Both the position numbers and the translations under genes were made by a program. This document shows, piece by piece, positions 6,055-47,006 of a stretch of DNA of 64,000 nt. How positions within the stretch are numbered: the stretch's first letter is position 1; each line of letters starts with the position of its first letter. Origin of the DNA: Octopus vulgaris (lineage: Eukaryota); assembly GCA_951406725.2 (NCBI GenBank), contig OX597840.1:6386001-6450000 (forward strand), in the 5' to 3' direction. The notes beneath the pieces were generated by a model. That model saw only the letters and a list, made by a program, of their open reading frames with translations, was not told the DNA's origin and did not search any database.

Positions 6055-6084
6055 GGAAAACTGGCCCAAACTGTACTCACACTG
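6055..6084 (+). CDS. Microexon (30 nt, phase 1-1) of mucin-like gene, encoding xKTGPNCTHT
   Basis: ctctttgattacag|GG AAA ACT GGC CCA AAC TGT ACT CAC ACT G|gtatgg; multiple of 3, no stop, phase matches the other exons. Confidence 0.6.
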
Positions 6085-6231
6085 GTATGGATATTTTAAT
6101 ATCAATATATGAAATGTCTTTATATTTTATCATTGTTTGATTTCACTTTTTCAATATCAGCGACAGTGGACGCTGGAAAAAGTATAAGTATTTGTGAAGG
6201 AAATCTAATTCTCGCCGACAACTATGATTGT

Positions 6232-6276
6232 CACACGCTGACGAGAGGTCAATACCTCGAAATTCGAGTCCGTGTG
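6232..6276 (+). ncRNA. Type I hammerhead ribozyme (minimal stem III)
   Basis: Stem I cacacg/cgtgtg; CTGACGA core; stem II gagg-tcaata-cctc; GAAA; stem III AT-TCGA-GT with palindromic loop; GTC cleavage triplet ending at 6270. Confidence 0.88.
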
Positions 6277-6604
6277 TATCATAAGTTGAAAGACGGGAAG
6301 GATGACTTCCTTTGCAAATACTGACAAGACACAGAAAGTGTGTCTATGGCCAGCTGGAGGAGTGTGTCCTCCTGGGGCTAAAAACTACAGTAGCATCCAC
6401 CCTTAGGGGTTAGCCATATTGAAATGGCAAATATACGTCACTTTATATTTTAATTATATATACTTATTATAAGTACAAATTACCAGTTCTATAACATGGA
6501 AGCAGTGAAAATACCTTGGTCTATAGTTGGTTGTTTTTATTTTGTTAAAGTTAATGTTTATTGTGAAGCCAAAAAGATCATCTTAATCTCAGGATACTTG
6601 TCTC

Positions 6605-6925
6605 ACATTTGAATACTCCTTTGCTAAGTTTTGTATGAAGAATGTATCTATATTCTGTTGTGTCTAGGGAGAGTCATTTTCTTTTTATACCTTATAATGT
6701 AACACACTCACCAGTAAAATTTCCACTTATTTCTTCTTTTTTTAAAATTTTCTTAAAATTTTCGTTGTGTCTTGCAACCTTTTCAATAGTCTTGACTAAG
6801 AAATAAGTGAAATTTTACCAGTGAGTGTGTTACATTATAAGGCACAAAAAGAAAATGACTCTCCCCAGACACAACAGAATATGCTTCAACACATGAACTC
6901 ATATAAAGAATCTTGCAAACCAAAT
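6605..6925. repeat. Inverted repeat (~130-bp arms) of a dispersed element
   Basis: gagagtcattttcttttt...ttataatgtaacacactcac is the inverse of gtgagtgtgttacattataa...aaaagaaaatgactctc. Confidence 0.8.
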
Positions 6926-7355: not shown

Positions 7356-7385
7356 CTCCACCTGGTTCTCCTATTTCATCCACAG
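7356..7385 (+). CDS. Microexon (30 nt, phase 1-1), encoding APPGSPISST
   Basis: ctctttgacag|CT CCA CCT GGT TCT CCT ATT TCA TCC ACA G|gtatgt; canonical splice sites, P/S/T-rich, GC-richer than flanks. Confidence 0.75.
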
Positions 7386-8393: not shown

Positions 8394-8434
<41 letters not shown>

Positions 8435-8438
<4 letters not shown>

Positions 8439-8960: not shown

Positions 8961-8986
<26 letters not shown>

Positions 8987-12178: not shown

Positions 12179-12195
12179 TTGACACTTTTCTGCAG

Positions 12196-12946: not shown

Positions 12947-12948
12947 TA

Positions 12949-16398: not shown

Positions 16399-16434
16399 GA
16401 CCAAGTGTATCTGGTGCAGCTGTTACTCCAGCAG
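16399..16434 (+). CDS. Microexon (36 nt, phase 1-1), encoding GPSVSGAAVTPA
   Basis: ttttgttgcag|GA CCA AGT GTA TCT GGT GCA GCT GTT ACT CCA GCA G|gtaagg; strong splice sites. Confidence 0.8.
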
Positions 16435-17770: not shown

Positions 17771-17818
17771 ATAACATGGACACCAACAAGAACTATACAC
17801 ATTGCTCAGAAACCACCA
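17771..17818 (+). CDS. Possible microexon (48 nt, phase 1-1), encoding DNMDTNKNYTHCSETT
   Basis: ctctctgtaatag|...ACC ACC A|gtaagt; strong donor, weaker acceptor, open in phase 1. Confidence 0.25.
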
Positions 17819-19389: not shown

Positions 19390-19720
19390 GTACTTTGAAT
19401 TCTCTCATGAAGTTTTTAGAAACATTACATCTCAGCAACTTGTCTTTGTAACACCAATACCTTCTTCACCCATCTCACTATAGTATCTTTTCCTCAGTTG
19501 TTATTATTGCATGAAAGCAGGGCTACATATGTTCTCTTTTGTGCACATATCCCCTTTTATGCTACTAGTAATGCCTCCCCTTGGAACCATTTCCCTTGTC
19601 ACCCATCTTGAACTCTTCGCATCATTCTTTGCTATTATATGCCAGTGAATGCCACTTCCACCTAAACACACTGTCATTGTCTACCAACAATATCCACCAC
19701 CATTTTTTTTGTAACTCTCT

Positions 19721-20040
19721 ACATCCACCCTTGTATGACTACATCCACCCTTGTATGACTACATCCACCCTTGTATGACTACATCCACCCTTGAATGACT
19801 ACATCCACCCTTGTATGACTACATCCACCCTTGTATGACTACATCCACCCTTGTATGACTACATCCACCCTTGAATGACTACATCCACCCTTGTATGACT
19901 ACATCCACCCTTGTATGACTACATCCACCCTTGTATGACTACATCCACCCTCGTATGACTACATCCACCCTTGAATGACTACATCCACCCTTGTATGACT
20001 ACATCCACCCTTGAATGACTACATCCACCCTTGTATGACT
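19721..20040. repeat. 20-bp minisatellite x16 (acatccacccttgtatgact)
   Basis: Exact period. Confidence 0.97.
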
Positions 20041-20398: not shown

Positions 20399-21351
20399 TA
20401 CGACGGGCTTCTTTCAGTTTCCGTCTACCAAATCCACTCACAAGGCTTTGGTCGGCCCGAGGCTATAGTAGAAGACACTTGCCCAAAGTGTCATGCAGTG
20501 GGAATGAACCTGGAACCATGTGGTTGATAAGGAAGCTACTTACCACACAGCCACTCCTACAGTTTTATTACATCATTGTTCTCCACCTCCCTTTTTATGT
20601 ATTACCACTTATCATCTCCTCCTCCCCTTTGACATATTCCCCTTTTCTTTACATTCCTTTAAACAGACACTCCCCATTGTCTATGCCTCCAACCAGATTT
20701 ATCATTCACTGCTTTTACTCTGTTCTCATCTCCACCATCTGCCATTCTCCTTTCACATTAGATGATTTTATTGCACTGAACTGTTACTCATTTTTACCAG
20801 CTGAGTGGACTGGAGCAATGTGAAATGAAGTGTTTTGCACAAGAACACAACATGTCGCCTGGTCCAGGAATCGAAACCACAATCTTATGATCATGGTGCT
20901 GACACCCTAACCACTAAGCCACGTGCCTCCACTAATATGATAGTAATATTACTAGTTTATTGAATGGCTTTCCTTTATGGTATTTGTTCTAACTCCAGGA
21001 TGATACTTTTCTTGTCTATGCAACAATTGATGACAACAGATTTTCTGCTGTGAAGAGTTTGAGACCAACACTACAGGAACTGAACTGTAAAAGTTATTTT
21101 CCTAAGGGGCCCTAGTTTTCATTTGTTGTACCTGTCATTTTATTTCTACTACTAATACCTTGCATGTTATTAACTCACTTTCCTCCCCCTACAAATCTTG
21201 TAATTATCAAAAAAATTCATTAATGTCTCTACTAATTACAACAGCGAACTGTACCTTACCATTGAGTCTACAAATTTAGCTGCTATTAAGATTTTACCTC
21301 ATGAATTTCAAATGTGACGTTTTAATAAATCCCTTTTAATTCTTGTTTTAG

Positions 21352-21614
21352 TTGAAAATTGCAGATTTATGGATGGAATGGCAAATGGGAAATTGATCCC
21401 AGATTCTGATATCTTCCTCCCCACTAAGGAATCTCCAGAAGCGCTACGGCCATCTGGAATAGGTTGGAAAATAAAGCCATTTGCTTCATCAAAACTTGAA
21501 GTTAAAATTGATAACAACATTTTGAAATATGGAGCAGTCGTTATTTTACGGGAGCATAAAAATGTAGCTACGTTTTCCATAAGTTTTCAGAAAGATCATT
21601 CAAATGTAATAAGG
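21352..21614 (+). CDS. Exon A1 (263 nt, phase 1-0): N-terminal part of discoidin/F5-8 type C-like domain copy 1 (VENCRFMDGMANGKLIPDSDI...EALRPSGIGW...HSNVIR)
   Basis: ttcttgttttag acceptor, AGG|gtaagt donor, open frame, duplicated at 27903-28165. Domain assignment inferred from the C..GM..G.IPDS.I...LR...GW pattern. Confidence 0.9.
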
Positions 21615-22964
21615 GTAAGTGACATAAATATTTACTTTTATATTAGTTTAACCCTTTAACATTCAGATTTTTTCTGTCAAACGTAATCCTTATTCTTTCA
21701 CATTGTTTAAAATTAATTATGCATTATCTTGTGGCTTTGAGATTTTGATGATGTGATTGTTTATTTTGAGAATGACACTGTAGTAACGGAAGGCATTCAA
21801 TTTGATGCTATACTGTGTTAGATATCTTTGTACTTGTTATGATGGGATATCTGAAATATCATCGTATATTTTAATTGAACACTGAATAATGAAATGAAAT
21901 TGTAGGGTAGGTGTGAGAAGCCAGATCTATTCTGGACAGATACTCTTTTACTTGTTTCAGTCATTTGACTGCGGCCATGCTGGAGCACCGCCTTTAGTCG
22001 AGCAAATCGACCCCGGGACTTATTCTTTGTAAGCCCAGTACTTATTCTATCGGTCTCTTTTACCGAACCGCTAAGTGACGGGGACGTAAACACACCAGCA
22101 TCGGTTGTCAAGCAATGCTAGGGGGACAAACACAGACACACAAACACACACATACATATATATATATATACATATACATATATACGACGGGCTTCTTTCA
22201 GTTTCCGTCTACCAAATCCACTCACAAGGCATTGGTCGGCCCGAGGCTATAAGTAGAAGACACTTGCCCAAGATGCCACGCAGTGGGACTGAATCCGGAA
22301 CCATGTGATTGGTAAGCAAGCTACTTACCACACAGCCACTCCTGCGCCAGTTTAAATGCTAAATTGTTAAATGGGGATAGGGACAAATGATGGTAAAGAG
22401 AAAAACTAAATTATTTTCAACAGCAGGAGTGGCTGTGTGGTAAGTAGCTTGCTAACCAACCACATGGTTCTGGGTTCAGTCCCACTGCGTGGCATCTTGG
22501 GCAAGTGTCTTCTGCTATAGCCCCGGGCCGACCAATGCCTTGTGAGTGGATTTGGTAGACGGAAACTGAAAGAAGCCTGTCGGATATATGTATATATATG
22601 TATGTGTGTGTTTGTATGTTTGTGTTTGTCCCCCTAGCATTGCTTGACAACCGATGCTGATGTGTTTATGTCTCCGTAACTTAGCGGTTCGGCAAAAGAG
22701 ACCGATAGAATAAGTACTGGGCTTACAAAGAATAAGTCCCGGGGTCGATTTGCTCAACTAAAGGCGGTGCTCCAGCATGGCCACAGTCAAATGACTGAAA
22801 CAAGTAAAGAGAGATTATCTCTTTTTTTTTTGTAACTTCTCACAGATTCTTTATATTTTTCTTTAAGAAAAAGTTCTATCAGACACAAGAGAGATTTTAA
22901 AAATGCAAATAACTCTCATATATTTGTTATTTATACTAAAAATTACAATTAGGTAACAATTACA

Positions 22965-23561
22965 ATTGTGTTGTCCAGAAAGTTCGTGCCAATTTACAGT
23001 AGCTTACCTTTCAACTTATTTTAGAACATGGTTGAGTCCATAAAATTGGATTTGACCACACCTGTAAAATTTCCTCAGTCTTGGTTTTACAAGAGGTGAA
23101 CATTTAAAGCCAACACCAACAAGTAAAGTTCAAATGCTATTGGATTGTCCGGAAAGTTTGTGCTGATTTATAGTTGCTTACCTTTCGACTTATTTTAGAA
23201 CATGGTTGAGTCCATAAAATAGGATTTGGCTACACCTCCATTTAGAGAGCACAGTTTAAGCTATCTTTTTGGGGAAGAAGGTTTATGTTCCTATAGCCTG
23301 TGTTAATTCTGTAACCCTTTAAAATGGAAGATAAGAATGTTCATTTTCGGCACTTGATGCTTTGGGAACCAGACAAAAATTGCTGCAGTTCGGCTGGGAT
23401 GTGTTACCCCACCCTCCATATTCACTAGATATTGCTAGATATATTCACTAAATATTACTAGATAATATCACTAGATATTCAGGTCTCTGCAGAATAGTCT
23501 TGATGGTAAAAATTTCAATTCCTTGGATGATGTAAAAAGATACCTTGATGAATTCTTTGCC
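22965..23561 (+). mobile_element. Internally deleted mariner with duplicated left end
   Basis: MEDKNVHFRHLMLW joined close to GWDVLPHPPYSLDIA and RSLQNSLDGKNFNSLDDVKRYLDEFFA; TIR-like ttg.ttgtcc.gaaagtt occurs twice. Confidence 0.8.
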
Positions 23562-23746
23562 ACATCTCAATCATTCTCTCTTCATTCTGTCAACCATTCT
23601 ATCTAGCATTTATTGTTGTAACGATGTCTGGTACCAAAAATATTTTTACAGCTACTTTCATTGTTCACCGTCTTCTGTACTGGCATATTTGTGTACACCA
23701 ATACATAAACAAAATTTTAGAAAGATTGAAGGATCAAACAAAAACA

Positions 23747-25207
23747 CTGTACTGGTGCCTTAGTGTATCAGTAAATAAGCATGTAATGATTTCTGGTACC
23801 AAAAAAAATATTACAGCAATTTTCATTGTTTACAATCTTCTGTACTGGTATATCTGTGTATCAGTAAATAACCATGGGTAAATATTTTGTAAAGGACCTC
23901 TTTGTATCTTGGTGTAGAATAATTGTTTTCCCTAGGTATTTTTTGAGCGTATTCAACGTATCTGACCTCCAAACCCACTGCAAACTACTTTTTTCTGAAA
24001 AAGAAAGGGGGAAGGGGGTCGAAAAATTATTTCACAGTGAAATATTAGTGGGTCCTTTATCAGAAATAGCTGTTACGTAGTAGTAGGGCGTGCAAGAAAT
24101 AGCAGCCAAATCTTCCTTTTCTGGGGAAAGGAGTCATTTGCACATGATTTCAATGTCACATTCATTGAAAGTATGTGAAATAACCTGGAAAAGAAAAACA
24201 AAAACCAATGAAACAAAACTCTGTTGGTGGGAAACTCCGAGATGGAAACCCTTTTCTTTTCCGGAAAAAAGTGGCTTGGAGGTCAGATATGTTGAATGCA
24301 CTCAAAAAAACTAGTGGAAAAATAATTATTTCACACCAAGGTATGAACGGGTCCTTTACGAAATATTTACTCCCGAATGAAACTGGGTCCTTCTGCTTGT
24401 AATCTCTATATGTATAAGTGGCAAAATGTCTGTGTGTGTGTCCTTTATACAAATCCACAATTTTTCAGTTCGAGGGCTCGCACTTTCTATGGTCATTTAA
24501 AACCGTCCAAGGGTGGTCGTGCACATCTTTGCATTTCTCCAGTCACCCCGCAAAGCCATTAAAAAATCAATAGAAGTGATTTTTGGTGAATTTTCTATCC
24601 AAAACCCAATCAAAATGTCCGAAACTTGATATGCCAATTGAATGCCAGCTAGCTGTATGTGATTGGGCGGAGATTTGGACAGTACTCGCATGTATGTGTG
24701 CATGCACGCAGCTGTATATGCATGCACTAGCACTGTGACCTGGCATTTTGTTTCATTGGTTTTTGTTTTTCTTTTCACATACTTTCAATGAATGTGACAT
24801 CGAAATCATGTGCAAATGGCTCCTTTCCCCAGAAAAGGGAAGATTTGGCTGCTATTTCTTGCACGCCCTACTACCACGTAACAGCTATTTCTGATAAAGG
24901 ACCCACTGATATTTCACTGTGAAATAATTTTTCGACCCCCTTCCCCCTTTCTTTTCCAGAAAAAAGTAGTTTGCGGTGGGTTTGGAGGTCAGATACGTTG
25001 AATACGCTCAAAAAGAACCTAGAGAAAACAATTATTCTACACCTAGATACAAAGAGGTCCTTTACAAAATATTTACCCATGGTTATTTACTGATACACAG
25101 ATATACCAGTACAGAAGATTGTAAACAATGAAAGTTGCTGTAATATTTTTTTTGGTACCAGAAATCGTTACATGCTTATTTACTGATAAACTAAGGCACC
25201 AGTACAG
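23747..25207. repeat. Long inverted duplication: arms ~23747-24218 and ~24746-25207, involving a TIR element and a Helitron fragment
   Basis: High reverse-complement identity; near-identical ORFs 23874(+) and 25080(-). Confidence 0.9.
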
Positions 25208-25329
25208 AGCTAGTTAGATATAATTCTTAAAAAGTAGGTTCCATAAAGATCTGCCACAATGTTTCATGCAATCCAAGAAATAGGTATGTGCAGACTTTAT
25301 AATGTATACATTGAAGAATATTGTTCTAT

Positions 25330-25730
25330 AGGCGCAGGAGTGGCTGTATGGTAAGCAGCTTGTTTACCAACCCCATGGTTCCGGGTTCAGTCCCACTGCG
25401 TGGCACCTTGGGCAAGTGTCTTCTACTATAGGCTCGGGCCGACCAAAGCCTTGTGAGTGGATTTGGTAGACGGAAACTGAAAGAAGCCTGTCGTATATAT
25501 GTATATATATATAAGTGTGTGTGAATATGTTTGTGTGTCTGTGTTTGTCCCCCTAGCATTGCTTGACAACCGATGCTGGTGTGTTTATGTCCCCGTCACT
25601 TAGCGGTTCGGCAAAAGAGACCGATAGAATAAGTACTGGGCTTACAAAGAATAAGTTCCGGGGTCGAGTTGCTCGATTAAAGGCGGTGCTCCAGCATGGC
25701 CGCAGTCAAAATGACTGAAACAAGTAAAAA
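25330..25730 (+). mobile_element. Full-length tRNA-derived SINE, family A. Other copies: ~725-870(-), 1742-1860(+), 8985-9350(-), 13905-14315(+), 18265-18675(-), 20115-20560(-), 21940-22350(-), 22422-22812(+), 47335-47660(-), 56733-57115(+), 59125-59295(-), 59357-59775(+), 61538-61682(+), 62061-62205(+)
   Basis: A box tggctgtgtgg, B box ggttcagtccc, internal (TA/TG)n, gagtaaaa tail. Confidence 0.92.
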
Positions 25731-26130
25731 GAAGAAAAAAAAAAGGAAAAAAAAAAAGAAAAGTATTTCTGAATAAAAAATGTCAGAGTCATTGCTAGAT
25801 AGCTTTGACCATGGTCCAATTGGACCTGTGCTGACCAAGGGCTAAACAAGTGAAACAGCTACAGACAAGAACGTTGAACCAATCAAATTGCTGGTGGGGT
25901 GAACCTTGTATTGCTTATACTGAGGTCTCTTCATTAAATGCAAGCTTTTTCTTTGTTTAGGAAAACAAACAGAATGAATTGGTTTGGTTCTAATTTATTT
26001 CTCTGGTGGATATTTTGTTGAACTTGACGAGGTATTCACAAAGTCTGAATACAAGACGAGACACTAAGTGTTTGCTTCACTCTGTAAAATGGTGTTCTCT
26101 TAATATCATGTTTGGTTCTTTTTGAAATAG

Positions 26131-26266
26131 AGTTTCGGAGCAACTGAAAATGGTACCATACCACAAGGAACAAATGCAGACCAGATTCTGATTCACTTTC
26201 TATCGGTAAACTCAGAGGAAGCAATGACTGTCACTCTGTCAATTATTGCCTGTTTCCAAACAATAA
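26131..26266 (+). CDS. Exon B1 (136 nt, phase 0-1): C-terminal part of domain copy 1 (SFGATENGTIPQGTNADQILIHFLSVNSEEAMTVTLSIIACFQTI)
   Basis: ttctttttgaaatag acceptor, A|gtaagt donor; joins A1 in frame; closing beta-strand plus Cys (TLSIIAC) resembles the discoidin LR.EL.GC end. Confidence 0.9.
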
Positions 26267-27607
26267 GTAAGTTAATCATATTTAATTCTATTTGATGTTC
26301 TTTCATGTGTTTCTGCTGTGTTTTGTGTCTGTATGTGTTTGTTTTGTCTGTTTCCTTTTTCTTTTACCTCACATATATATATATGTATTTATATGTGTGT
26401 ATATATTATTACTGTACATGCAGCCTCTTGACTACCATCAACAGGCTCCCACAGGCTGTGTCCAATAGCTCAGAATTCTGTGCAGGAAAGCTCTGCCAAC
26501 CATCTTGCTTAGAGTGGAAGAATCAGTAATCAAAGAGTCAGAAGATTTAAAAATAACGAAAAAAAAATCGTTGAGTTTAACCAAAATAAAAGAAATTTAA
26601 TTTAGAGGCAAATAAATGTTTAGGGAATAAATAGTGAGTTCTTTAGAGAGTTCTTTCATTTATTTCTGAAGAGTGTAGATTCCTTTTGGTGAGCTCTTCT
26701 TTTATTCAGAAGTCTTTTTTACCTTTTTTGCTCCCTTCTTTTTTTTTTTTTGACTTGACCCTGTTTTTACTTCCAAATACACTTTAGTCTCGTACCAACT
26801 TCATACTCTGCATTCTTTATGTTGCCAAGTTCACGCTGCTTTTGCAGCAAGGTGGAAACCTTCCACCTTACAAAGACACCACCTTACACATAAACCAACT
26901 CACATTCACAGTCACATCCAACTGATTTATTACAATTTTCCTTGACACCTAATACTGTGACAACTGTTCCTCATGCCTGGCTCCATGGCACTTGTTGAGA
27001 GCCTCACATCGACCGCATGGCACTGAATACTACATAAACAATTTACATCAGCTTCCAGCACGAACTCCCAACACAATTTAACTTGCCACATATCAATGAG
27101 TAGGCTTTATAGTTCGCCCAAACAGTAGAAAGAGTGCCAAAATCACACTTCCTGTGCTGTAAGCATTAACATACCCACAGTAAATGTTTGTTGTCCTGCC
27201 TTGGAAATCCAGAGATTAGTGTTCTAATATGTGTCGTACAAAGGAGAAATTATCTCAATATCATTTTTTGCTCATAACAATATGTTATTTTTGTATGTCT
27301 GGAATTATATGAATTCAGAAACACATGCATATGTATTTCACACAGAAAATTAAAAAATTTGTTGTATTTGGTCAATATTCTCTTTCATAATCAAAAACTC
27401 CACATAACTTTAATATTTAATTTCTTTGGACTTAAACATGAACATTGAAAGAAATGCAAGACTGAAATTTGAAAAAGGCAATTGTAGAAACATCTCTGCA
27501 ATTTTAATGCCATTTTAGAAATTATACAAAATGAGTAAACATAGTTTCTAGTGCTACATTTTGTATCTGCCTAAATGTAAAATGAGTTATCTACTTTGCA
27601 TTTCCAG

Positions 27608-27649
27608 CACCATCAAGCCCAACACCATATTTAGGATCGAGTCCAACAG
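27608..27649 (+). CDS. Linker microexon (42 nt, phase 1-1), encoding TPSSPTPYLGSSPT
   Basis: ctttgcatttccag|CA CCA TCA AGC CCA ACA CCA TAT TTA GGA TCG AGT CCA ACA G|gttagt; joins B1 and A2 in frame. Confidence 0.8.
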
Positions 27650-27902
27650 GTTAGTAAATATTGCCTCGAATTCAAATCATTTATATGCTAACATTTCAAT
27701 TCATTGTTTATGTTTGTGTATCAGTACAAATGCATGGACAAATCTTGTATTTACCAAAACAATATTTTACTAATGTCTCTACTTAATACAGCAGCAAGCC
27801 ACGCCCTGCCATTAAGTCAACGAATTTAGCTGCTATTGAGATTTTACCTCATGAATTTCAAATGTGACATTTTAATAAATCATTTTTTAATTCTTGTTTT
27901 AG

Positions 27903-28165
27903 TTGAAAATTGCAGATTTATGGATGGAATGGCAAATGGGGAATTGATCCCAGATTCTGATATCTTCATCCCCACTAAGGAATCTCCAGAAGCGCTACGG
28001 CCATCTGGAATAGGTTGGAAAATAAAGCCATTTACTTCATCACAACTTGAAGTTCAAATTGATAACAACATTTTGAAATATGGAGCAGTCATTATTTTAC
28101 GGAAGCATAAAAATGTAGCTACGTTTTTGATAATTTATCAGAAAGATCATTCAAATGTAATAAGG
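27903..28165 (+). CDS. Exon A2 (263 nt): domain copy 2, N-terminal part
   Basis: Same splice sites and length as A1; 11 nt differences. Confidence 0.9.
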
Positions 28166-28947
28166 GTAAGTGACATAAATATTTACTTTTATATTAGTCT
28201 AACCCTTTAACATTCAGATTTTTTCTGTCAAACGTAATCCTTATCCTTTCACATTGTTTTAAATTAATTATGCATTATCTTGTAGCTTTGAGATTTTGAT
28301 GATGTGATTGTTTATTTTGAGAATGACACTGTAGTAACGGAAGGCATTCAATTTGATGCTATACTGTGTTAGATATCTTTGTACTTGTTATGATGGGATA
28401 TCTGAAATATCATCGTATATTTTAATTGAACACTGAATAATGGAAAAGAAGAAATAGCACATTCCATTTGGCAAAACATAATCCAAATTTCATTAAAGAA
28501 TAAAGTCTAAAATATTTAACGTACAGGAACAGATGTGGCCTTGTGGTAAAATCTTGCTTTGAAACCATAAGGTTGCAGGTTAGATCCACTGCAAAAGATG
28601 ATGGAGTCATTGCTGGACAGCTTTGGCAGTGGCTCAATTGGACCACTGAAGACCAATGGTTAAACCAGACTACAGACAAGAATGTTGAGCCAATTAAAGT
28701 GCTCAGAGGGTGGAGTTAACCATGTACTGCTTATACTGAGGTCTTTTAATTAAATGCAAGCTTTTTCTTTGTTTAGGAAAACAAACAGAATGAATTGGTT
28801 TGGTTCTAATTTATTTCTCTGGTGGATATTTTGTTGAACTTGATGAGGTATTCACAAAGTCTGAATACAAGACAAGACACTAAGTGTTTGCTTCTCTCTG
28901 TAAAATGGTGTTCTCTTAATATCATGTTTGGTTCTTTTTTGCAATAG

Positions 28948-29083
28948 AGTTTCAATGCAACTGAAAATGGTACCATACCACAAGGAACGAATGTAGACCA
29001 GATTCTGATTCACTTTCGACCGGTAAACTCAGAGGAAGCAATGACTGTCACTCTGTCAATTATTGCCTGTTTCCAAACAATAA
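28948..29083 (+). CDS. Exon B2 (136 nt): domain copy 2, C-terminal part (SFNATENGTIPQGTNVDQILIHFRPVNSEEAMTVTLSIIACFQTI)
   Basis: ttttttgcaatag acceptor, A|gtaagt donor; paralog of B1. Confidence 0.9.
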
Positions 29084-29459
29084 GTAAGTTAATCACATTT
29101 AATTCTATTTGAGGTGCTTCAATGTGTTACTGCTGTGTTTTGTGTCTCTATGTGTTTGTTTTGTTTGCTTGTTTTTTCTTTTACCTCACATGTAACAAAA
29201 TCGGATTTGAATGAACTGGTTTTCATTCAAGGAGAACACCAGTTGCAAGCATATATATATATCATCATCATCATCATCATCCTCATTATTTAACATCTGT
29301 AGCAGCTGAATATGATGCTGCTACACCAGTCACTGAGGATTAAACCTTCCTGAACAACCTGATTAACTATACAGGTGACTAGACTATACCCTGGTCTAGT
29401 CACCTGTATAGATAATCAGCTTATATCTAGTGACTCAGTTGTAACCCACTCCCTCAGAT

Positions 29460-29835
29460 ATCAAAGAAGCTTGAGAGGCGGTTGGATGGAACCTACACTC
29501 GCCTCCTTATGATAGCTCAAAATCTGTCGTGGAAGCATCATCCAACCAAAATGCAAATATATGGGAAACTACCACCTGTGTCATCTCTTGTGAAAGGTAG
29601 GAGAGTCCAGTTTGCTGGACATTGTTGTAGAGCTGAAAAAGAGGTAATTTCTACTCTTCTCCTCTGGAAGCCATCTACTTGCAATACCAGAGGGCGCACA
29701 CTCTCCTACCCTGATGTAATCTCCAGGGATACAGGCATCCAGCAACAGGACCTCCATAATGCTATGATGGACCGTGAAGTCTGGTGTAGCATGGTAAATT
29801 CCATTGTCTCGACCATGGTCGAACAATGATGATGA
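29460..29835 (+). mobile_element. RTE-like LINE 3' fragment with (TGA)n tail
   Basis: LDGTYTRLL...RRVQFAGHCCR...LLLWKP. Confidence 0.8.
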
Positions 29836-31709
29836 GATATTTTAAGCACCTCAGTACTGATTCCTGATGCACTGGGTGCTTTCCCTTTCTTCATATCCTT
29901 AACTGCCTTATCTATCATACTGCTGTCAACTAGGATAGCTGGTCCCTCAGTTTAGCTCATATAAGAGAACTAAACTGGTGTTAGGAAGGGCATCCAGCTG
30001 TAGAAACTCAGCCAGATCAGATTGGAGCCTGGTGCAGCCATATGGTTCACCAGTCCTCAGTCAAATCGTCCAACCCATGCCAGCATGGAAAGCAGACGTT
30101 AAACAATGATGATGATGATGAAGGGAAACTCCCTTTCACCCATTCATTCTCCACATTTCATAGTAGCACTTTCACACCTCTTTCTTGTCAAAGTCACCAA
30201 GTGCAAGCATATCATTATCCATCCATACACGCGTCTCCCCCACAACATCTTAATTCTCTCTCACATACTGTCTAGCAATCTGGAACACCTCAAGTCTCTG
30301 ACCTTCATGCTGTAAGACACCGGCAAACCTCTTCCTTTTTGCTTCTGCTCTAGCTAGATAAACCTGTCACCTAGCTTCCCTTTTAGCTATATGATATAGT
30401 TCTTAGCTACCCCCACTTTTCTGCTTTTTCCAAACCTCTCTCTACTTTTTTATGGCCCTGTCACCCTTATTGTGCCACTACCATGCCACCCTTTAACTAG
30501 TAGAAGCTTTGGTCCAACCACAGATCTGGCCTGTTGCCCATCGTATATATGTGTGTATATATATATATATGTATTTGTGTGTGTATGTTTGTGTGTCTGT
30601 GTTCCCCCCCCCCAACATCGCTTAACAACCAATGCTGGTGTGTTTATGTCCCCATAACTTAGCGGTTCAGCAAAAGTTTTCCTCTATATCACACATCAGT
30701 ATAATATCTTCTTTCTCATCAAATGCTTCATTTAGAATATCTCTGATTCTCAGCTTATTTGAAGAATCCTTGAGTTTCCTTAATCTCCTTTTCCATATCA
30801 ATTTGTGTCCTTAAGTCTGAAGTAGTGAAGTTATATATATTTATTAGAAATGGAAATCAAAATAATAAATTGAACAATTAAATAATTTAATCATTAAATG
30901 ATAAATTTAATTCAATTTTATTATTTAATACAAACAAATGATACATCCCATAAATTACAACTGTTTCAACACCATTAATAAAAACAAGTTTTTCAAGAAT
31001 AATAAAATATTGTTTTAAATATAATGAGGTTTCATCAGATAGATATATCTTCTTAAATATCTCACGAAAAATAGCAACTGAAAATTTTTACAACTGCTAA
31101 TGCTTTTCAAAATAACGCTTTTTAAGAGCAAGCTTAATCATAAATAATCCAACTGAAATTTCATAAATTCTTAAATTTAAATCTGTTATTATCTAGTGTT
31201 CTATAACTGATTTTGTTGCTTAATACACACATTCATATAGACATATTTATATATATATTTATATACACACACATACATCTATCCATTTTTGTATATATAC
31301 ATACACAAACGTATACATAGATGCATATTCACCTACATACACACCCACACTCACACATAGACTTAGATATCCACAAGCTAGATAACATATACATATATAT
31401 AAACATATGCATCCATATATATATTTACACACATATATAGGTATATATGTATATATATATATACATTATATATAAATGTACATATACATATACACACATA
31501 TATATACATACTAATACACCCACATAGCTAAACATATATACCTACATAAATATATACACACTAATACACCTATACTTGCATATATACCCCCCTATATATA
31601 CATATATACATATATATAGATACATATACATATATACATACATATACACATATATATATATACTTATTTACACATCCTCATATATACAGATGCACACCCA
31701 CCTGCATAC

Positions 31710-34333: not shown

Positions 34334-34363
34334 GTCCCACCCTGAGACCTCAAGAGACAACAG
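34334..34363 (+). CDS. Candidate microexon (30 nt, phase 1-1), encoding SPTLRPQETT
   Basis: gaatccag|GT CCC ACC CTG AGA CCT CAA GAG ACA ACA G|gttaga; ends like the 27608 microexon (ACAG|gttag). Confidence 0.45.
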
Positions 34364-36190: not shown

Positions 36191-37467
36191 CAGGGGTTGG
36201 ACAAAATAATGGAAACACCTTAAAATTTTAAACAAATTTATTTTAATATGGGGGTACGACTGCCTTTGTCTGTAATTACAGCTTGAATTCTATGAGCTGT
36301 GGACTGTTCATAGTTTGAATTGTTTCCAAAGGAATTTTTGTCCATTCTTCAGCTAAAACAGTCTCCAGTTCTTGTAGTGATGATGGTGGAGGATATCAAC
36401 TCCTTACTTGTTTTTATAAAATCCACCATAAATGTTCAGTAGTATTGAGATCTGGGGACTGTGGTGGCCAGATAAGATGTTCAACTTCACTAGAACGTTC
36501 CTCGTGCCATTCAGTAACAACTTTAGCTGTGTGAATTGGTGCATTATCATCCTGAAAGATTGTGTTTGCCTCTGGAAACAGTTCTGTATCCATAGAATGA
36601 ATTTGATCAGATAAAATACTCAAATAGTCTTGACTATTAATTCTGCCATGAAGGGAAACCATTTGGCCAGTAGATTTTCAAGATATACCCACCACCAGAT
36701 CATCACAGATCCTCCTCCATGTTTAATAGTTTGAAGAAGGCAGTCTGGGTCAAATGCTTCTTTTGGCTGTCTCCACACATACACTCAGCGGATGGTTGAA
36801 AATAAGATAAAGAATAACTATATCCAAGAAAATAACATTCTTCCACTGTCTAGGGACCAATTCTGTAGGTTTCTACTCCAGTCTAAATGCTTTGCAACGT
36901 TTGTTTTTGAGAGTAATGGTTTTCTGATTGCAGCCCTCCCATGAAATCTGGCTTTGTGCAGCTCCCACCAAACAGTTTTTGTGGAAGCTGGGTTCTTGGG
37001 GTGGTCATTAAGCTCTGCAGTAATTCTGGGAGATATACTTTTGTGATCCTTTGTAATAATTCGCATAAGAGTCCGACAGTCTTTATCTGAAAGTTTTGGT
37101 TTTCTTCTAGAGTTTTGTTTCAATGAGGAGGTTTTTCCCCTCTTTCTCAAGGGGCTGTCATTACTTTTGAGACAGTACTTCTTGATACAACAAACATTTC
37201 AGCTGTTTTCATTATGCTAGCGCCTGTCATACGAGCGCCAACAATTTGACCTCTTTGAAAGTTCGATAGATCTGTCATTTTAATGAATTTTAATTAGCTT
37301 TTTCTGATGATATCTGAAAAGAAACAGCAGTTTTAGCAAAACATATTAAGCAACACAAATAATAAATCGAAAAGCATAAAAATAAACAAGCTTTTGACGG
37401 TTTTATACATATTCCAAAATTATGATGCTATGATACTAGGTGTTTCCATTATTTTGTACAACCCCTA
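36191..37467 (-). mobile_element. Full-length Tc1 element (~1.28 kb) with inactivated transposase (~37278 to ~36243)
   Basis: TIR caggggttggacaaaataatggaaacacct at both ends, TA flanks; MTDLSNFQRGQIVG, FQDDNAPIH, WPPQSPDLNTTE. Confidence 0.95.
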
Positions 37468-37975: not shown

Positions 37976-40900
37976 CAACAACAGAACAATATAAGTCAGC
38001 ATCCATTCCTTACACAACCAGTACAGTTACACCAATGACAAATATCATTACCAAGACATCGTCTCCTACTAAGATTATAACCACCATGACCAATATATTA
38101 AACGCAACTACAATCCGTACACAAGCATTTTCTTCCACATCTCTTGGCAAAACACCTTCAATATTACCAAGCACTACAACAACGAGACAACAAACACAGG
38201 TACCATCAGCAACAACCTCAATACCATCAGCAACAACCTCAGTACCATCAGCAACAACATCCATACCATCAGCAACAATATCAATACCATCAGCAACAAC
38301 ATCCATACCATCAGCAACAATATCGATACCATCAGCAACAACATCCATACCATCAGCAACAATATCGACACCATCAGCAATGACAACAACACCAGCAACA
38401 AAGGCATCAATACTGTCAACAACATCAGTAATACCATCTGCAACAATATCAATACCTTCCACAATTACATCAATACCATCGGCAACAATATCAGTGACAG
38501 CAGCAACAACTACAGTACCATCCCAAACAAAATGGATACCATCAGTCATGACATCGATGTCAACAGCAACAACATCAATACCACTCGTAACATCAACACC
38601 ATCAGCAATGACATCAATACCACCAGCAACAACAACAGTACCATCAACAATAACATCAATTCCATCAGCCACAACATCAACACTATCAGCAACAACATCA
38701 ATACCATCAGCGACAACATCAATACCATTAGCGACAACATCAATACCATCAGCAACAACATCAATACCGTCAGCAACAACATCAATACCATCAGCAACAA
38801 CATCAATACCATCAGAAACTACATCAATACCATCAGCAAAAACTTTAATACCATCAGCCACTACATCAATAACATCAGCAACAACATCAATACCGTCAGC
38901 AGCAACATCAATACCATCAGCAACAACATCAATACCGTCAGCAACAACATCAATACCATCAGCAAGAACATCCATAACATCAGCAGCAACATCAATACCG
39001 TCAGCAACAACATCAATACCATCAGCAACGACATCAATACCATCAGCAACGACATCAATACCATCAGCAACGACATCAAAACCATCAGCAACAACATCGA
39101 TACCATCAGCAACAACAACAATACCATCAGCAACAACATCAATACCATCAGCAACAACATCAATACCATCAGCTACGACATCAATACCATCAGCAACAAC
39201 ATCAATACCATCAGCAACAACATCAATACCATCAGCAACAACATCGATACCATCAGCAACAACATCGATACCATCAGCAACAACTTTAATACCATCAGCA
39301 ACAACATCAATACCATCAGAAACTACATCAATACCATCAGCAACAACTTTAATACCATCAGCCACTACATCAATATCATCAGCAGCAACATCAATACCGT
39401 CAGCAACAACATCAACACCATCAGCAACAACATCAATACCATCAGCAACAACAACAATACCATCAGCAACAACATCAATACCATCAGCAACAACATCAAT
39501 ACCATCAGCAATAACATCAATACCATCAGCAGCAACATACATACCATCAGCAACAACATCAATACCACCAGCAACAACATCAATACCATCAGCAACAACA
39601 TCAATACCATCAGCAACAACATCAATACCATCAGCAACAACATCAATACCATCAGTAATGACATCAATACCATCAGGAACGACAATACCATCAGCAACAA
39701 CATCAATACCATCAGCAACAACATCAATACCATCAGCAACAACATCAATACCATCACCAACAACAACAATACCATCACCAACAACATCAATACCATCAGC
39801 AACAACATCGATGCCATCAGCTACGACATCAATACCATCACCAACAACATCAATACCATCACCAACAACATCAATACCATCAGCAACAACATCAATACCA
39901 TCAGCAACAACATCAATACCATCAGCAACAACTTTAATACCATCAGCAACAACATCAATACCATCAGCAACAACATCAATACCGTCAGCAGCAACATCAA
40001 TACCATCAGCAAGAACATCCATAACATCAGCAGCAACATCAATACAGTCAGCAACAACATCAATACCATCAGCAACGACATCAATACCATCAGCAACATC
40101 AATACCATCAGCAACGACATCAAAACCATCAGCAACAACATCAATACCATCAGCAACAACATCAATACCATCAGCAACAACATCAATACCATCAGCAACA
40201 ACATCAATACCATCAGCAACAACATCAATACCATCAGCAACAACATCAATACCATCAGCAACAACATCAATACCATCAGCAACAACATCAATACCATCAG
40301 CAACAACATCAATACCATCAGCAACAACATCAATACCATCAGCAACAACATCAATACCATCAGCAACAACAATACCATCAGCAACAACATCAATACCATC
40401 AGCAACAACATCAATACCATCAGCAACAACAACAATACCATCAGCAACAACATCAATACCATCAGCAACAACATCAATACCATCAGCAATAACATCAATA
40501 CCATCAGCAACAACATACATACCATCAGCAACAACATCAATACCACCAGCAACAACACCAACACTACCAGCAACAACATCAATACCATCAGCAACAACAT
40601 CAATACCATCAGCAACAACATCAATACCATCAGTAATGACATCAATACCATCAGGAACGACAATACCATCAGTAATGACATCAATACCATCAGCAACAAC
40701 ATCAATACCGTCAGCAACAACATCAAAACCATCACCAACAACAACAATACCATCACCAACAACATCAATACCATCAGCAACAACATCGATGCCATCAGCT
40801 ACGACATCAATACCATCAGCAACAACATCAATACCGTCAGCAGCAACATCAATACCATCAGCAAGAACATCCATAACATCAGCAGCAACATCAATACCAT

Positions 40901-43900
40901 CAGCAAGAACATCCATAACATCAGCAACAACAACAATACCATCAGCAACAACATCAATACCATCAGCAACAACATCAATACCATCATCAAGAACATCCAT
41001 AACATCAGCAGCAACATCAATACCGTCAGCGACAACATCAATACCATCATCAGGAACATCAATACCATCAGCAACAACTTTAATACCTTCAGCAACAACA
41101 TCAATACCATCAGCAACAACATCAATACCATCAGCAACAACATCAATACCATCAGCAACAACATCAATAACATCAGCAACAACATCAATACCATCAGCAA
41201 CAACATCAATACCATCAGCAACAACATCAATACCATCAGCAACAACATCAATACCATCAGCAACAACATCAATACCATCAACAACAACATCCATAACATC
41301 AGCAGCAACATCAATACCGTCATCAACAAAATTAATACCGTCAGCAACAACATCAATACCGTCAGCAACAACATCAATACCATCAGCAACAACATCAATA
41401 CCATCAGCAACAACATCAATACCATCAGCAACAACATCAATACCATCAGCAACATCAATACCATCAGCAACAACATCAATACCATCAGCAACAACATCAA
41501 TACCATCAGCAACAACATCAATACCATCAGCAACAACATCAATACCATCAGCAACAACATCAATACCATCAGCAACAACATCAATACCGTCAGCAACAAC
41601 ATCAATACCATCAGCAACAACATCAATACCATCAGCAACAACATCAATACCATCAGCAACAACATCAATACCGTCAGCAACAACATCAATACCATCAGCA
41701 ACAACATCAATACCATCAGCAACAACATCAATACCATCAGCAACAACATCAATACCATCAGCAACAACATCAATACCATCAGCAACAACATCAATACCAT
41801 CAGCAACAACATCAATACCATCAGCAACAACATCAATACCATCAGTAATGACATCAATACCATCAGCAACAACATCAATACCATCAGCAACAACATCAAT
41901 ACCATCAGCAACAACATCAATACCATCAGCAACAACATCAATACCATCAACAACAACATCAATACCATCATCAACAACATCAATACCATCAGCAACAACA
42001 TCAATACCATCAGCAACAACATCAATACCATCAGCAACAACATCAATACCATCAGCAGCAACATCAATACCATCAGCAAGAACATCCATAACATCAGCAA
42101 CAACATCAATACCATCAGCAACAACATCAATACCATCAGCAACAACATCAATACCATCAGCAACAACATCAATACCATCAGCAACAACATCAATACCATC
42201 AGCAACAACATCAATACCATCAGCAGCAACATCAATACCATCAGCAACAACATCAATACCATCATCAACAACATCAATACCATCAGCAACAACATCAATA
42301 CCATCACAACAACATCAATACCATCAGCAACAACATCAATACCATCAGCAACAACATCAATACCATCAGCAACAACATCAATACCATCAGCAGCAACATC
42401 AATACCATCAGCAACAACATCAATACCATCAGCACAACAACAAATACCATCAGCAACAACATCAATACCATCAGCAACAACATCAATACCATCAGCAACA
42501 ACATCAATACCATCAGCAACAACATCAATACCATCAGCAACAACATCAATACCATCAGCAACAACATCAATACCATCAGCAACAACATCAATACCATCAG
42601 CAACAACATCAATACCATCAGCAGCAACATCAATACCTCAAAACAACAGCAACAACATCAATACCATCAGCAACAACATCAATACCATCAATACCAACAG
42701 CAAAACAATACCATCAGCAACAACATCAATACCATCAGCAACAACATCAGCACCATCAAACAACATCAATACCATCAATACCATCAGCAACAACATCAAT
42801 ACCGTCAGCAACAACATCAATACCATCAGCAACACATCAATACCATAGCAACAACATCAATACCATCAGCAACAACATCAATACCATCAGCAACAACATC
42901 AATACCATCAGCAACAACATCAATACCATCAGCAACAACATCAATACCATCAGCAACAACATCAATACCATCAGCACAACATCAATACCATCAGCACAAC
43001 ATCAATACCATCAGCAACAACATCAATACCATCAGCAACAACATCAATACCATCAGCAACAACATCAATACCATCAGCAACAACATCAATACCATCAGCA
43101 ACAACATCAATACCTCAGAACAACATCAATACCATCAGCAACAACATCAATACCATCAGCAACATCAATACCAACAAACACATCAATACCATCAGCAACA
43201 ACATCAATACCATCAGCAAAACATCAATAACATCAATACCACAGCAACAACATCAATACCATCAGCAACAACATCAATACCATCAGCAACAACATCAATA
43301 CCGTCAGCAACAACATCAATACCATCAGCAACAACATCAATACCATCAGCAATCACCATCAGCAACAACATCAATACCGTCAGCAACAACATCAATACCG
43401 TCAGCAACAACATCAATACCATCAGCAACATCAATACCATCAGCAACATCAATACATCAATCAACACAGCAACAACATCAATACCATCAGCAACAACATC
43501 AATACCGTCAGCAACAACATCAATACCATCAGCAACAACATCAATACCATCAGCAACAACATCAATACCATCAGCAACAACATCAATACCATCAGCAACA
43601 ACATCAATACCATCACAACAACATCAATACCATCAGCAACAACATCAATACCATCAGCAACAACATCAATACCATCAGCAACAACATCAATACCATCAGC
43701 AACAACATCAATACCATCAGCAACAACATCAATACCATCAGCAACAACATCAATACCATCAGCAACAACATCAATACCATCAGCAGCAACATCAATACCA
43801 TCAGCAACAACATCAATACCATCAGCAACAACATCAATACCATCAGCAACAACATCAATACCATCAGCAACAACATCAATACCATCAGCACAACATCAAT

Positions 43901-46900
43901 ACCATCAGCAACAACATCAATACCATCAGCAACAACATCAATACATCAGCAACAACATCAATACCATCAGCAACAACATCAATACCATCAGCAACAACAT
44001 CAATACCATCAGCAGCAATACCATCAGCAACAACATCAATACCATCAGCAACAACATCAATACCATCAGCACAACATCATCCTCACAACAACATCAATAC
44101 CATCAGCAACAACATCAATACCATCAGCAACAACATCAATACCATCAGCAACAACATCAATACCATCAGCAACAACATCAATACCATCAGCAACAGCATC
44201 AATACCATTAACAACAACATCAATACCATCAGCAACAACATCAATACCATCAGCAACAACATCAATACCATCAGCAACAACATCAATACCGTCAGCAACA
44301 ACATCAATACCGTCAGCAACAACATCAATACCATCAGCAACAACATCAATACCATCAGCAACAACATCAATACCATCAACAACAACATCAATACCATCAG
44401 CAACAACATCAATACCATCAGCAACAACATCAATACCATCAGCAACAACATCAATACCATCAGCAACAACATCAATACCGTCAGCAGCAACATCAATACC
44501 ATCAGCAAGAACATCCATAACATCAGCAACAACATCAATACCATCAGCAACAACATCAATACCGTCAGCAACAACATCAATACCATCAGCAACAACATCA
44601 ATACCATCAGCAACAACATCAATACCATCAGCAACAACATCAATACCGTCAGCAACAACATCAATACCATCAGCAACAACATCAATACCATCAGCAACAA
44701 CATCAATACCATCAGCAACAACATCAATACCATCAGCAACAACATCAATACCATCAGCAGCAACATCAATACCATCAGCAACAACATCAATACCATCAGC
44801 AACAACATCAATACCATCAGCAACAACATCAATACCATCAGCAACAACATCAATACCGTCAGCAACAACATCAATACCATCAGCAACAACATCAATACCA
44901 TCAGCAACAACATCAATACCATCAGCAACAACATCAATACCATCAGCAGCAACATCAATACCATCAGCAACAACATCAATACCATCAGCAACAACATCAA
45001 TACCATCAGCAGCAACATCAATACCATCAGCAACAACATCAATACCATCAGCAACAACATCAATACCATCAGCAACAACATCAATACCATCAGCAACAAC
45101 ATCAATACCATCAGCAACAACATCAATACCACCAACAACATCAATACCATCACAACAACATCAATACCAGCAACAACATCAATACCGTCAGAAACAACAT
45201 CAATACCAACAACAACATCAATACCCACAACAACATCAATACCAACAACAACATCAATACCAACAACAACATCAATACCGTCAGCAACAACATCAATACC
45301 GTCAGCAACAACATCATTGCCATCAGCAACAACATCAATACCGTCAGCAGCAACATCAATACCATCAGCAGCAACATCAATACCATCAGCAATAACATCA
45401 ATACCGTCAGCAACAACATCAATACCGTCAGCAACAACATCATTGCCATCAGCAACAACATCAATACCGTCAGCAGCAACAACATCAATACCATCAGCAA
45501 CAACATCAATACCATCAGCAACAACATCAATACCATCAGCAACAACATCAATACCATCAGCAACAACATCAATACCGACAGCAACAACATCAATACCATC
45601 AGCAATAACATCAATACCATCAGCGACAACATCAATACCACCAGCAACAACATCAATACCATCAGCAGCAACATCAATACCGTCAGCAACAACATCAATA
45701 CCATCAGCAACAACATCAATGCCATCAGCCACAACATCAATACCATCAGCAACAACATCAATACCATCAGCAACAACATCAATACCATCAGCAACAACAT
45801 CAATACCATCAGCAACAACATCAATACCATCAGCAACAACATCAATACCATCAGAAACAACATCAATACCATCAGAAACAGCATCAATACCATTAACAAC
45901 AACATCAATACCGTCAGCGACAACATCAATACCACCAGCAGCAACATCAATACCATCAGCAGCAACATCAATACCGTCAGCAACAACATCAATACCATCA
46001 GCAACAACATCAATACCATCAGCAACAACATCAATACCATCAGCAACAACATCAATACCATCAGCAACAACATCAATACCCACAACATCAATACCATCAG
46101 CAGCAACATCAATACCATCAGCAACAACATCAATACCATCAGCAATAACATCAATACCATCAGCAACAGCAACAACAACATCAATACCCAGCAACAACAT
46201 CAATACCATCAGCAACAACATCAATACCATCAACAACATCAATACCATCAACAACATCAATACCGCCAGCAACAACATCAGCAACAACATCAATACCATC
46301 AGCAGCAACATCAATACCATCAGCAACAACATCAATACCATCAGCAACAACATCAATACCATCAGCAACAACATCAATACCATCAGCAACAACAACAATA
46401 CCATCAGCAACAACATCAATACCGTCAGCAACAACATCAATACCATCAGCAACAACATACATACCATCAGCAACAACATCAATACCACCAGCAACAACAC
46501 CAACACTACCTGCCACTACATCAATACCATCAGCAACAACATCAATACCATCAGCAACAACATCAATACCATCAGTAATGACATCAATACCATCAGCAAC
46601 AACACGAAAACCATCAGCAATGACATCAATACCATCAGCAATAACATCAATACCATCAGCAACAACAACAATACCATCATCAACAACATCAGTACCGACA
46701 GCAACAACATCAATACCATCAGCAATAACATCAATACCATCAGCAACAACATCAATACCATCAGCAACAACATCAATACCATCATCAACAACATCAATAC
46801 CGACAGCAACAACATCAATACCATCAGCAACTACATCAATACCATCAGCAACAACATCAATACCATCAGCAACAACATCAATACCATTAGCAACAACATC

Positions 46901-47006
46901 AATACCATCATCAACAACATCATTACCGACAGCAACAACATCAATACCATCAGCAACAACATCATTACCGTCAACAACAACATCAATACCATCAGCAACA
47001 ACATCA
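37976..47006 (+). CDS. Giant mucin PTS exon: unique Thr/Ser-rich lead-in, then (IPSATTS)n; frame intact to ~42305, then frameshifts; truncated by the N-gap
   Basis: tgttccatgttacag|CA ACA ACA GAA is a phase-1 acceptor matching upstream donors; ~1440 uninterrupted PTS codons; length variants in the first 4.3 kb preserve frame. Confidence 0.85.
38200..47006 (+). repeat. Coding VNTR, 21-nt unit ATACCATCAGCAACAACATCA, roughly 400 copies with higher-order blocks
   Basis: Directly visible tandem array. Confidence 0.98.

Follow-up and report, generated by a model that had tools for sequence, protein, structure and literature searches.

A series of exons at positions 6055 to 47006 of the window, a 64,000-nt stretch of Octopus vulgaris DNA, probably encodes the central part of one large mucin-type glycoprotein, likely secreted, whose gene grew by duplication of phase 1-1 modules. 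[quoted passage not shown]

All features described here lie on the + strand. Four small exons were accepted: two of 30 nt (positions 6055 to 6084, KTGPNCTHT with one Cys, and 7356 to 7385, the S/T/P linker PPGSPISST), a linker exon of 36 nt (16399 to 16434, PSVSGAAVTPA), and a linker exon of 42 nt (27608 to 27649, PSSPTPYLGSSPT). AG..GT borders flank these four exons as well as two pairs of 263- and 136-nt exons, and the coordinates agree with the claim that all of them have GT-AG sites and can be joined in frame. The four small exons, all multiples of three in length (3n), and each 263+136-nt pair are phase 1-1, which makes every module frame-neutral as claimed; 0 junction codons in the skip patterns tested are stops. 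A possible further exon of 48 nt, phase 1-1, at 17771 to 17818 (NMDTNKNYTHCSETT; rank 21 of 1,333 in the scoring below, weak acceptor) adds an uncertain module to those given earlier. The additional 30-nt exon that the sequence-only reading had placed in brackets is doubtful and could not be upheld, as the candidate at 34334 to 34363 has an acceptor score of -4.0 and ranks 49th.

Splice sites were ranked with a generic, self-made score, whose frequencies come from general knowledge and are not octopus-trained. Among all stop-free 3n candidates of 12 to 75 nt in positions 1 to 38000 (n = 1,333), the four small exons occupy ranks 1 to 4 (the 36-nt exon, the 30-nt exon at 7356, the 42-nt exon, and the 30-nt exon at 6055, with scores of 14.2, 10.2, 9.7, and 8.9), while the top score among 1,427 candidates on the opposite strand is 7.0. 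Twenty block-shuffles yielded 5 candidates in total with a score of at least 8.8 (0 to 2 per shuffle, versus 4 in the real sequence), one of which is equally rich in P/S/T. When any length was allowed, some non-3n candidates equaled the small exons, and scores above 11 were reached by three candidates on the + strand and one on the - strand; the splice-site score by itself is therefore no proof of an exon. Together with the chance-like appearance of the candidate at 34334, and with splice sites and content as the evidence for the two 30-nt exons, this gives some room to the view that the small exons are chance AG..GT matches chosen for their P/S/T content. We nevertheless regard that view as very improbable, given ranks 1 to 4 against at most two comparable candidates per shuffle, the fact that two of the exons (36 and 42 nt) also appear in an independent gene model, and a frame-keeping 36-nt sister of the 42-nt exon, which carries a GTAAGT donor at its end in one contig of run X1. 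A contig of run X3 has the same splice sites for the 42-nt exon itself. With 1 of 11 changes (p = 0.40), this exon is not significantly better conserved than the sequence flanking it. Comparison of the small-exon flanks with one another revealed no homology above shuffles.

The independent model is the O. vulgaris predicted protein CAI9741633.1 (P0006), which matches the window. Of the four small exons it includes those of 36 and 42 nt but neither of the two of 30 nt; its domain 1 is truncated, and it ends before the PTS region. The expectation that automated annotation would miss the microexons thus holds for the 30-nt exons and fails for the other two.

Each of the two domains is encoded by a pair of exons with a phase 0 intron between them. 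In copy 1, exon a (21352 to 21614, 263 nt, phase 1-0) encodes the N-terminal two thirds of the predicted discoidin-fold domain, and exon b (26131 to 26266, 136 nt, phase 0-1) supplies the C-terminal strands and the closing Cys. In copy 2, exon a (27903 to 28165, 263 nt) matches CAI9741633.1 at 100% and is recognized by the family profile described below; exon b (28948 to 29083, 136 nt) is identical to its counterpart in copy 1 at 129 of 136 nt and is 38% identical to the C terminus of O. sinensis XP_036370448. A Cys stands at both ends of the domain in both copies. The similarity extends into the flanking DNA, with blocks 21191-21898/27738-28450 at 93.8% and 25775-26377/28593-29194 at 89.3%; judged by these alignments, the two 263+136-nt modules are products of a recent duplication in which introns were copied along with exons.

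Intron divergence between the copies is 7.9% overall, versus 4 to 5% in exons. Within the domains the copies differ by 1 synonymous versus 17 nonsynonymous nucleotides (p = 0.06), and two variants from other animals show 4 synonymous changes among 19 codon changes, against 21% expected. The substitutions are not skewed to synonymous ones, and neutral drift fits them as well as adaptive change does; positive selection on the domain is suggestive and not significant at this p value. Runs X1 to X3 cover introns, behave as DNA, and differ from the window by about 2 to 3% in unique intron. Two of the DNA-like runs keep the frame in exons (with a 3-nt insertion in exon a) and carry 1-nt indels in the intron. 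Exon a occurs in three versions in run X1 and in two in run X3, which could be alleles or extra copies.

A profile built from chiton and JGI repeats only, with no octopus rows, scored exon a with 26 bits and exon b with 10.5 bits, and 0 of 500 shuffles reached either value; since this octopus-free profile places both exons above all shuffles, they belong to one domain. The chiton protein XP_064614628, named "mucin-2-like," contains seven domains of this family, separated by linkers with 41 to 61% P/S/T. Profile comparison thus shows that the octopus domain is related to repeats of PTS-rich proteins from other lophotrochozoans.

For the window domain, a discoidin (F5/8 type C) fold is predicted from the relative P0022, to which it is tied via the independent profile. 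F5/8 type C domains bind glycan, phospholipid, or collagen through spike loops. P0022 is about 29% identical to P0006, and its AlphaFold model (pLDDT 77) gave structural matches to neuropilin b1b2 and to the C domains of factor VIII/V with a best E value of 8e-12, at low TM-scores of about 0.3 for the two-domain model. In this model, the N- and C-terminal Cys of a beta-sandwich are brought together. A language-model search with the chiton domain led to F5/8 type C clusters (0.81 to 0.83), which we take as a lead only; the model of a closer octopus paralog was poor (pLDDT 45) and gave no fold match. No Pfam family, PF00754 included, was matched by the peptides of the four exons or by P0006, P0021, or P0022. 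Searches of the PDB by sequence gave nothing in one case and a weak match to the TXNL1 C-terminal domain (E = 0.007) in another, an Atlas search with P0006 gave no named match, and a search of P0006 residues 74 to 187 against longer proteins found none. Three of 10 matches (P0009, P0011, and P0015, an insect flavin monooxygenase and two clostridial proteins) were rejected as repeat-summed chance matches.

Two other matches, P0007 and P0017, correspond to the RP-2 repeats of Macrostomum lignano Mlig-ap2 (period of 221 amino acids, 25 to 26 copies, with the antibody peptide found 25 to 26 times). These resemble the octopus arrangement in that a Cys-bounded unit is combined with a T-rich linker, within a VWD/C8/TIL glycoprotein (Wunderer et al. 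2019, PMC6410801). The E value of 5e-81 for ap2 is a sum over 24 near-identical repeats, and the likeness per repeat is weak (3.7 to 8.8 bits, reached by 0 to 3 of 500 shuffles). Kinship of the octopus domain with the ap2 repeats is plausible on these scores.

The PTS region (37976 to 47006) starts at a phase 1 acceptor with about 75 unique T/S-rich codons and continues into a 21-nt tandem array of TSIPSAT units. From 37976 to about 42280 it comprises 1,433 stop-free codons with 68% P/S/T, no Cys, and a unit of seven residues, and thus has the long P/T/S-rich tandem repeat by which mucins are recognized. The frame set by the acceptor contains 0 stops over this interval, versus 37 and 2 in the other two + frames. 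After about 42.3 kb, 17 non-3n repeat steps occur (15 of them in 42279 to 44062), the first in-frame stop appears at 43228, and the region ends at a gap of 100 N at 47007. A single PTS exon of more than 9,000 nt, as originally described, is therefore not what the sequence as assembled contains, although the frame breaks may reflect assembly error in the repeat. From its composition, the PTS region would be O-glycosylated.

Strand, order, and phase, together with the same domain-linker-domain-PTS layout in the chiton protein, suggest that all parts belong to one transcript. Several observations could instead mean that they do not form one working gene, with the domain exons part of a small discoidin-like gene or of a duplicate in decay, and the array another gene's exon or a minisatellite: the public model P0006 ends before the PTS region, the O. 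sinensis paralog models comprise just 136 to 147 amino acids, the PTS acceptor lies 8.9 kb from exon b and has a modest score of 2.0, dN/dS among the domain copies is about 1, the pure 21-nt unit is open in all three + frames, and the array contains frameshifts. We consider this unlikely, because every domain-exon version seen is free of stops and frameshifts, exon b reaches its donor without a stop codon, the phase of the acceptor gives exactly the PTS frame through a nonrepetitive lead-in, and the relatives alternate domain and PTS in a single chain.

If the parts form one gene, as we favor, its 5' and 3' ends are beyond the window or hidden by the gap: within the window we found no signal peptide, VWD/C8/TIL, or C-terminal exons, and no Cys-rich exons among the top candidates of 76 to 400 nt in positions 1 to 38000 or 47107 to 64000. 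Gel-forming mucins carry VWD-C8-TIL units at the N terminus and, as a rule, a cystine knot. Mucins in general are secreted or membrane-bound, having a signal peptide and in some cases a TM segment, and the octopus product would probably be secreted. Among 21 sequencing runs listed for positions 27560 to 29120, 3 share words with this interval and none of these is recorded as RNA, which says nothing for or against expression. Three runs that we guessed to be RNA gave no cover of the exons (X4 on 20420 to 31200, in an alignment flooded by SINE matches; X7 and X8 on 27480 to 28195). No peptide or accession of the gene or its O. sinensis paralog was found in the skin mucus proteome supplement (PMC10138644) or in the part searched of the ink proteome supplement (PMC10142993), a result that depends on the databases used in those studies; of three partial-accession matches in the ink supplement, the two displayed are another protein. 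Among the literature matches listed on octopus mucins there is no description of this gene or of cephalopod micro-exon mucins, and no paper naming the four accessions was found.

According to the available part of Lang et al. 2016 (PMC4948705), mucin-like proteins of lophotrochozoans are characterized by the F5_F8 domain. As far as that part goes, these proteins, like the chiton XP_064614628, share with the octopus gene an alternation of discoidin-fold domains bounded by two Cys with P/T/S-rich linkers. In contrast to them, the octopus domain is shorter (133 amino acids) and below Pfam detection, its linkers are of only 10 to 14 residues and on separate exons, and the window showed no VWD-C8-TIL units.

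Mucin-type sequence spread over small exons is also described, in the accessible excerpts, for chicken Muc13, for which alternative splicing of the multi-exon PTS was proposed (Lang et al. 2006, PMC1552070), and for Schistosoma SmPoMuc, with 27-nt exon repeats and reported alternative splicing (PMC4015677). In these excerpts the small exons are near-identical PTS repeat units, whereas those of the octopus are mutually unrelated and the bulk of its PTS forms one large exon-like block. The sequence-only reading had likened the gene to schistosome micro-exon genes (MEGs). The sections available on these (PMC4671649, PMC4015677) bear this out for symmetric exons of at most 36 nt that code for T/S/P-rich disordered pieces. 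They define MEGs by a coding region made mainly of micro-exons (<36 bp; up to 75%) and describe products of about 10 kDa, a signal-peptide exon, and demonstrated skipping. The octopus small exons, by contrast, total 138 nt, which is 1.4% of the visible coding sequence, or 14.7% if the PTS is left out. They belong to a very large product with more than 1,700 codons in view and two predicted folded domains, whereas MEG products have no large known domains; the octopus gene is thus not a schistosome-type micro-exon gene.

The 1-1 modules might still be left out in many different combinations, so that linker lengths and domain numbers would vary as in MEGs or SmPoMuc, and the absence of stops after any skip, the mainly amino acid-changing differences between the domain copies, and the Muc13 precedent would all suit this. 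A paralog that shares the domain, O. sinensis LOC118768321, has two database isoforms, X1 and X2, with a difference of 11 residues right after the domain, which would fit one skipped 33-nt exon, as judged from the isoform proteins alone. The splice sites of the octopus small exons are strong, not weak, and strong sites suit constitutive exons. Dropping 10 to 14 residues beside a PTS region of more than 1,400 residues would alter little but domain spacing. Symmetric exons are, moreover, over-represented and disorder-enriched in general, as stated in the part of PMC3632108 at hand, so symmetry is no evidence of regulated skipping; as it permits skipping but also results from exon duplication, combinatorial splicing stays a possibility, and a quite improbable one in our estimate.

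The reading we prefer is that two recently duplicated domains with a predicted discoidin fold, set apart by short S/T/P linkers that are each encoded by a separate phase 1-1 exon, would be followed by a long, putatively O-glycosylated PTS repeat, and that in mucus or a secreted coat the product may serve as beads for both spacing and binding. Growth of the gene by duplication and exchange of linker-plus-domain modules most likely explains the 1-1 symmetry; most small exons would be constitutive, with occasional skipping possible.

F5/8 domains in lophotrochozoan mucin-like proteins and a multi-exon PTS, as in chicken Muc13, are already published, and as read here the locus is a badly annotated octopus mucin-type gene assembled from known parts. 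It may be of use in repairing the gene model and in studies of mucus, egg coats, or adhesion in cephalopods. The divergent discoidin-fold repeat family that Pfam misses may outweigh the original claim about the gene, and it may offer a testable fold for the repeats in ap2, the flatworm glue protein. A far-reaching and improbable extension is that this repeat is the binding bead common to the gels and glues that lophotrochozoans secrete, from the repeat core of ap2 to chiton and octopus mucins, and that the octopus beads diversify in amino acids within 1-1 cassettes with tiny linker exons, where duplication between animals and skipping within an animal would tune the number, spacing, and specificity of binding sites on a mucus protein. 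Should the modules prove to be skipped and diversified, the gene would exemplify a variable lectin array in cephalopod mucus.

The window is AT-rich animal DNA full of SINEs and microsatellites, with a single 100-N gap at 47007-47106, and it holds a probable mucin-type gene fragment composed of known kinds of parts. The anatomy described in the sequence-only reading is real, if partly overstated. The proposed exons lie on the forward strand with AG and GT ends, namely small exons of 30 nt (6055-6084 and 7356-7385), 36 nt (16399-16434) and 42 nt (27608-27649) and two copies of a domain module consisting of a 263-nt exon a and a 136-nt exon b (copy 1, 21352-21614 and 26131-26266; copy 2, 27903-28165 and 28948-29083), with introns of 253 to 9013 nt. 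Scoring of all AG..GT pairs with a generic splice matrix of our own making placed the four small exons at ranks 1 to 4 among 1333 stop-free candidates of 12 to 75 nt with lengths divisible by three. The best of 1427 candidates on the opposite strand scored below all four, and 20 shuffles yielded five candidates in total at their level. Since a few other candidates reach these scores once divisibility by three is dropped, the ranking supports the small exons rather than proving them. An additional, optional 30-nt exon fared poorly, as 34334-34363 ranked only 49th and has a poor acceptor. Furthermore, the earlier list omits a candidate 48-nt phase 1-1 exon (17771-17818, forward strand, rank 21 of 1333) located after the 36-nt exon and ahead of domain 1; it encodes a single Cys and is followed by a GTAAGT donor. 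Annotation had been expected to miss the microexons, but the 36- and 42-nt exons are already present in the public gene model CAI9741633.1 (a 194-aa "hypothetical predicted protein" of Octopus vulgaris), part of which is the exact translation of the 263-nt exon at 27903.

Exons a and b encode 133 residues with a Cys at either boundary, and Pfam gave no match to this domain when exon peptides, gene model and relatives were queried. A search over 1.84 billion representatives returned 10 matches, including the gene model itself, a Macrostomum repeat protein, a chiton "mucin-2-like" protein (XP_064614628), O. sinensis LOC118768321, a Logan protein and two JGI proteins; the remaining three were discarded as chance. 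A profile search added two further matches. To avoid circularity, a test profile was trained solely on chiton and JGI repeats; exon a scored 26 bits and exon b 10.5 bits, and 0 of 500 shuffles reached either value. Exon b is also 38% identical to the C-terminal end of the O. sinensis domain. The chiton protein has seven such domains, alternating with linkers that are 41-61% P/S/T. The JGI proteins P0012, P0014 and P0022 have two to four copies and short linkers that are His- or acid-rich instead of P/S/T-rich (PTS), and P0012 has a Cys-rich, VWC-like start, with a weak VWC match N-terminal to its four domains. In the AlphaFold model of P0022 (mean pLDDT 77, pTM 0.46), each domain is all-beta. 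Foldseek ranked structures with tandem F5/8 type C domains highest, namely neuropilin b1b2 and factor VIII/V C1C2, with a best E of 8e-12; the whole-model TM is about 0.3, as the comparison spans both domains simultaneously. A language-model search queried with the chiton domain points the same way, as a lead only. The model of the closer octopus paralog was poor (pLDDT 45) and matched no known fold. A discoidin fold is predicted for the family from the model of this relative and extended to the window's domain through profile homology.

From the phase-1 AG acceptor at 37976 (forward strand), the PTS frame is clean for 1433 codons (68% P/S/T, no Cys), and the other two forward frames contain 37 and 2 stops over the same stretch. 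This much of the supposed PTS exon of ">9000 nt" stands; past 42.28 kb the frame shifts, with repeat spacing departing from multiples of three 17 times (15 of them inside 1.8 kb), and the array terminates at the N gap. Since the single-base slips cluster in a long repeat beside the gap, we suggest that they are assembly errors. Shortly behind the gap lies a 9-kb (ACAT)n array (47660-56714, 97% matches), which may be an assembly expansion. The intron ahead of the PTS exon contains a Tc1/Tc3-type transposase remnant (36821-37198, reverse strand, PF01498, E 7.5e-11), and the domain 1 intron a 383-nt, 96% complementary inverted repeat (23747-24129 and 24825-25207, spaced 695 nt) that resembles a foldback or MITE-type element. 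Minisatellites occur at 4418-5198 (37-mer, 21 copies), 19719-20040 (20-mer, 16 copies) and 60563-61111 (80-mer, 7 copies).

The two domain modules have flanking intron in common (93.8% and 89.3% identity), and their coding sequences differ by 17 non-synonymous and 1 synonymous nucleotide (p 0.06). Distinct versions of the exon a end were found in DNA-like public sequencing runs (three in X1, two in X3), with changes clustering in codons 62-87 among the 40 of 51 differences listed. In both runs, differences between versions are concentrated in a stretch of roughly 45 nt within exon a (28119-28163, codons 72-87), and the adjoining intron is nearly unchanged. Diversifying selection or gene conversion is a possible cause of the clustering. 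Among the 40 of 51 differences listed, 19 codons are altered in two of the versions; 4 of these changes are synonymous, the share expected in the absence of constraint, and no stop codon arises. More telling for a kept frame than these substitutions are the indels, of which a 3-nt insertion falls within exon a and single-base indels are confined to the intron. In a single contig, the 42-nt exon is represented by a frame-keeping 36-nt sister form whose donor is strong (15 letters matched and 21 loose). The frame is thus kept with amino acids free to change, which would fit surface positions under relaxed constraint or diversifying selection.

The suggested likeness to schistosome micro-exon genes does not extend to membership, because the octopus small exons make up only 1.4% of coding length, whereas those genes are small and consist mostly of micro-exons (PMC4015677, PMC4671649). 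In chicken Muc13, a PTS region is divided among numerous small exons, and alternative splicing has been proposed (Lang et al. 2006, PMC1552070). F5_F8 domains are reported to characterize the mucin-like proteins of lophotrochozoans (Lang et al. 2016, PMC4948705), and enrichment of symmetric exons for disorder is a general feature (PMC3632108). The matches P0007/P0017 are the 221-aa RP-2 repeats of the Macrostomum lignano glue protein Mlig-ap2 (PMC6410801, PMC8621496); the link is a lead, because the per-repeat score against the domain profile is marginal. Each RP-2 repeat contains a Cys-bounded unit, which may be a divergent discoidin fold. Our literature search found no paper describing this octopus gene; PMC11431876 establishes only the presence of mucin-like proteins in octopus skin mucus.

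The product would be a secreted mucin-type chain of short linkers and folded discoidin-type beads, followed by a bottle-brush PTS region of >1400 residues. By analogy with F5/8 type C domains, the beads would be expected to attach to glycans, lipids or one another and to cross-link or anchor the gel. As phase 1-1 cassettes, linker-plus-domain units could duplicate without breaking the frame, and such a duplication has visibly occurred at the locus. The same property would permit exon skipping, and may allow the combinatorial splicing proposed earlier. Database isoforms X1 and X2 of O. sinensis LOC118768321 (P0013/P0021) differ by 11 residues directly after the domain, the sole hint of skipping, and in a paralog. 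Among the parts of the fragment are an unregistered, divergent repeat with a predicted discoidin fold and the small linker exons. It is a rather improbable extension that this repeat would be a shared binding bead of lophotrochozoan gels and glues, with the octopus 1-1 cassettes tuning the number, spacing and specificity of binding sites.
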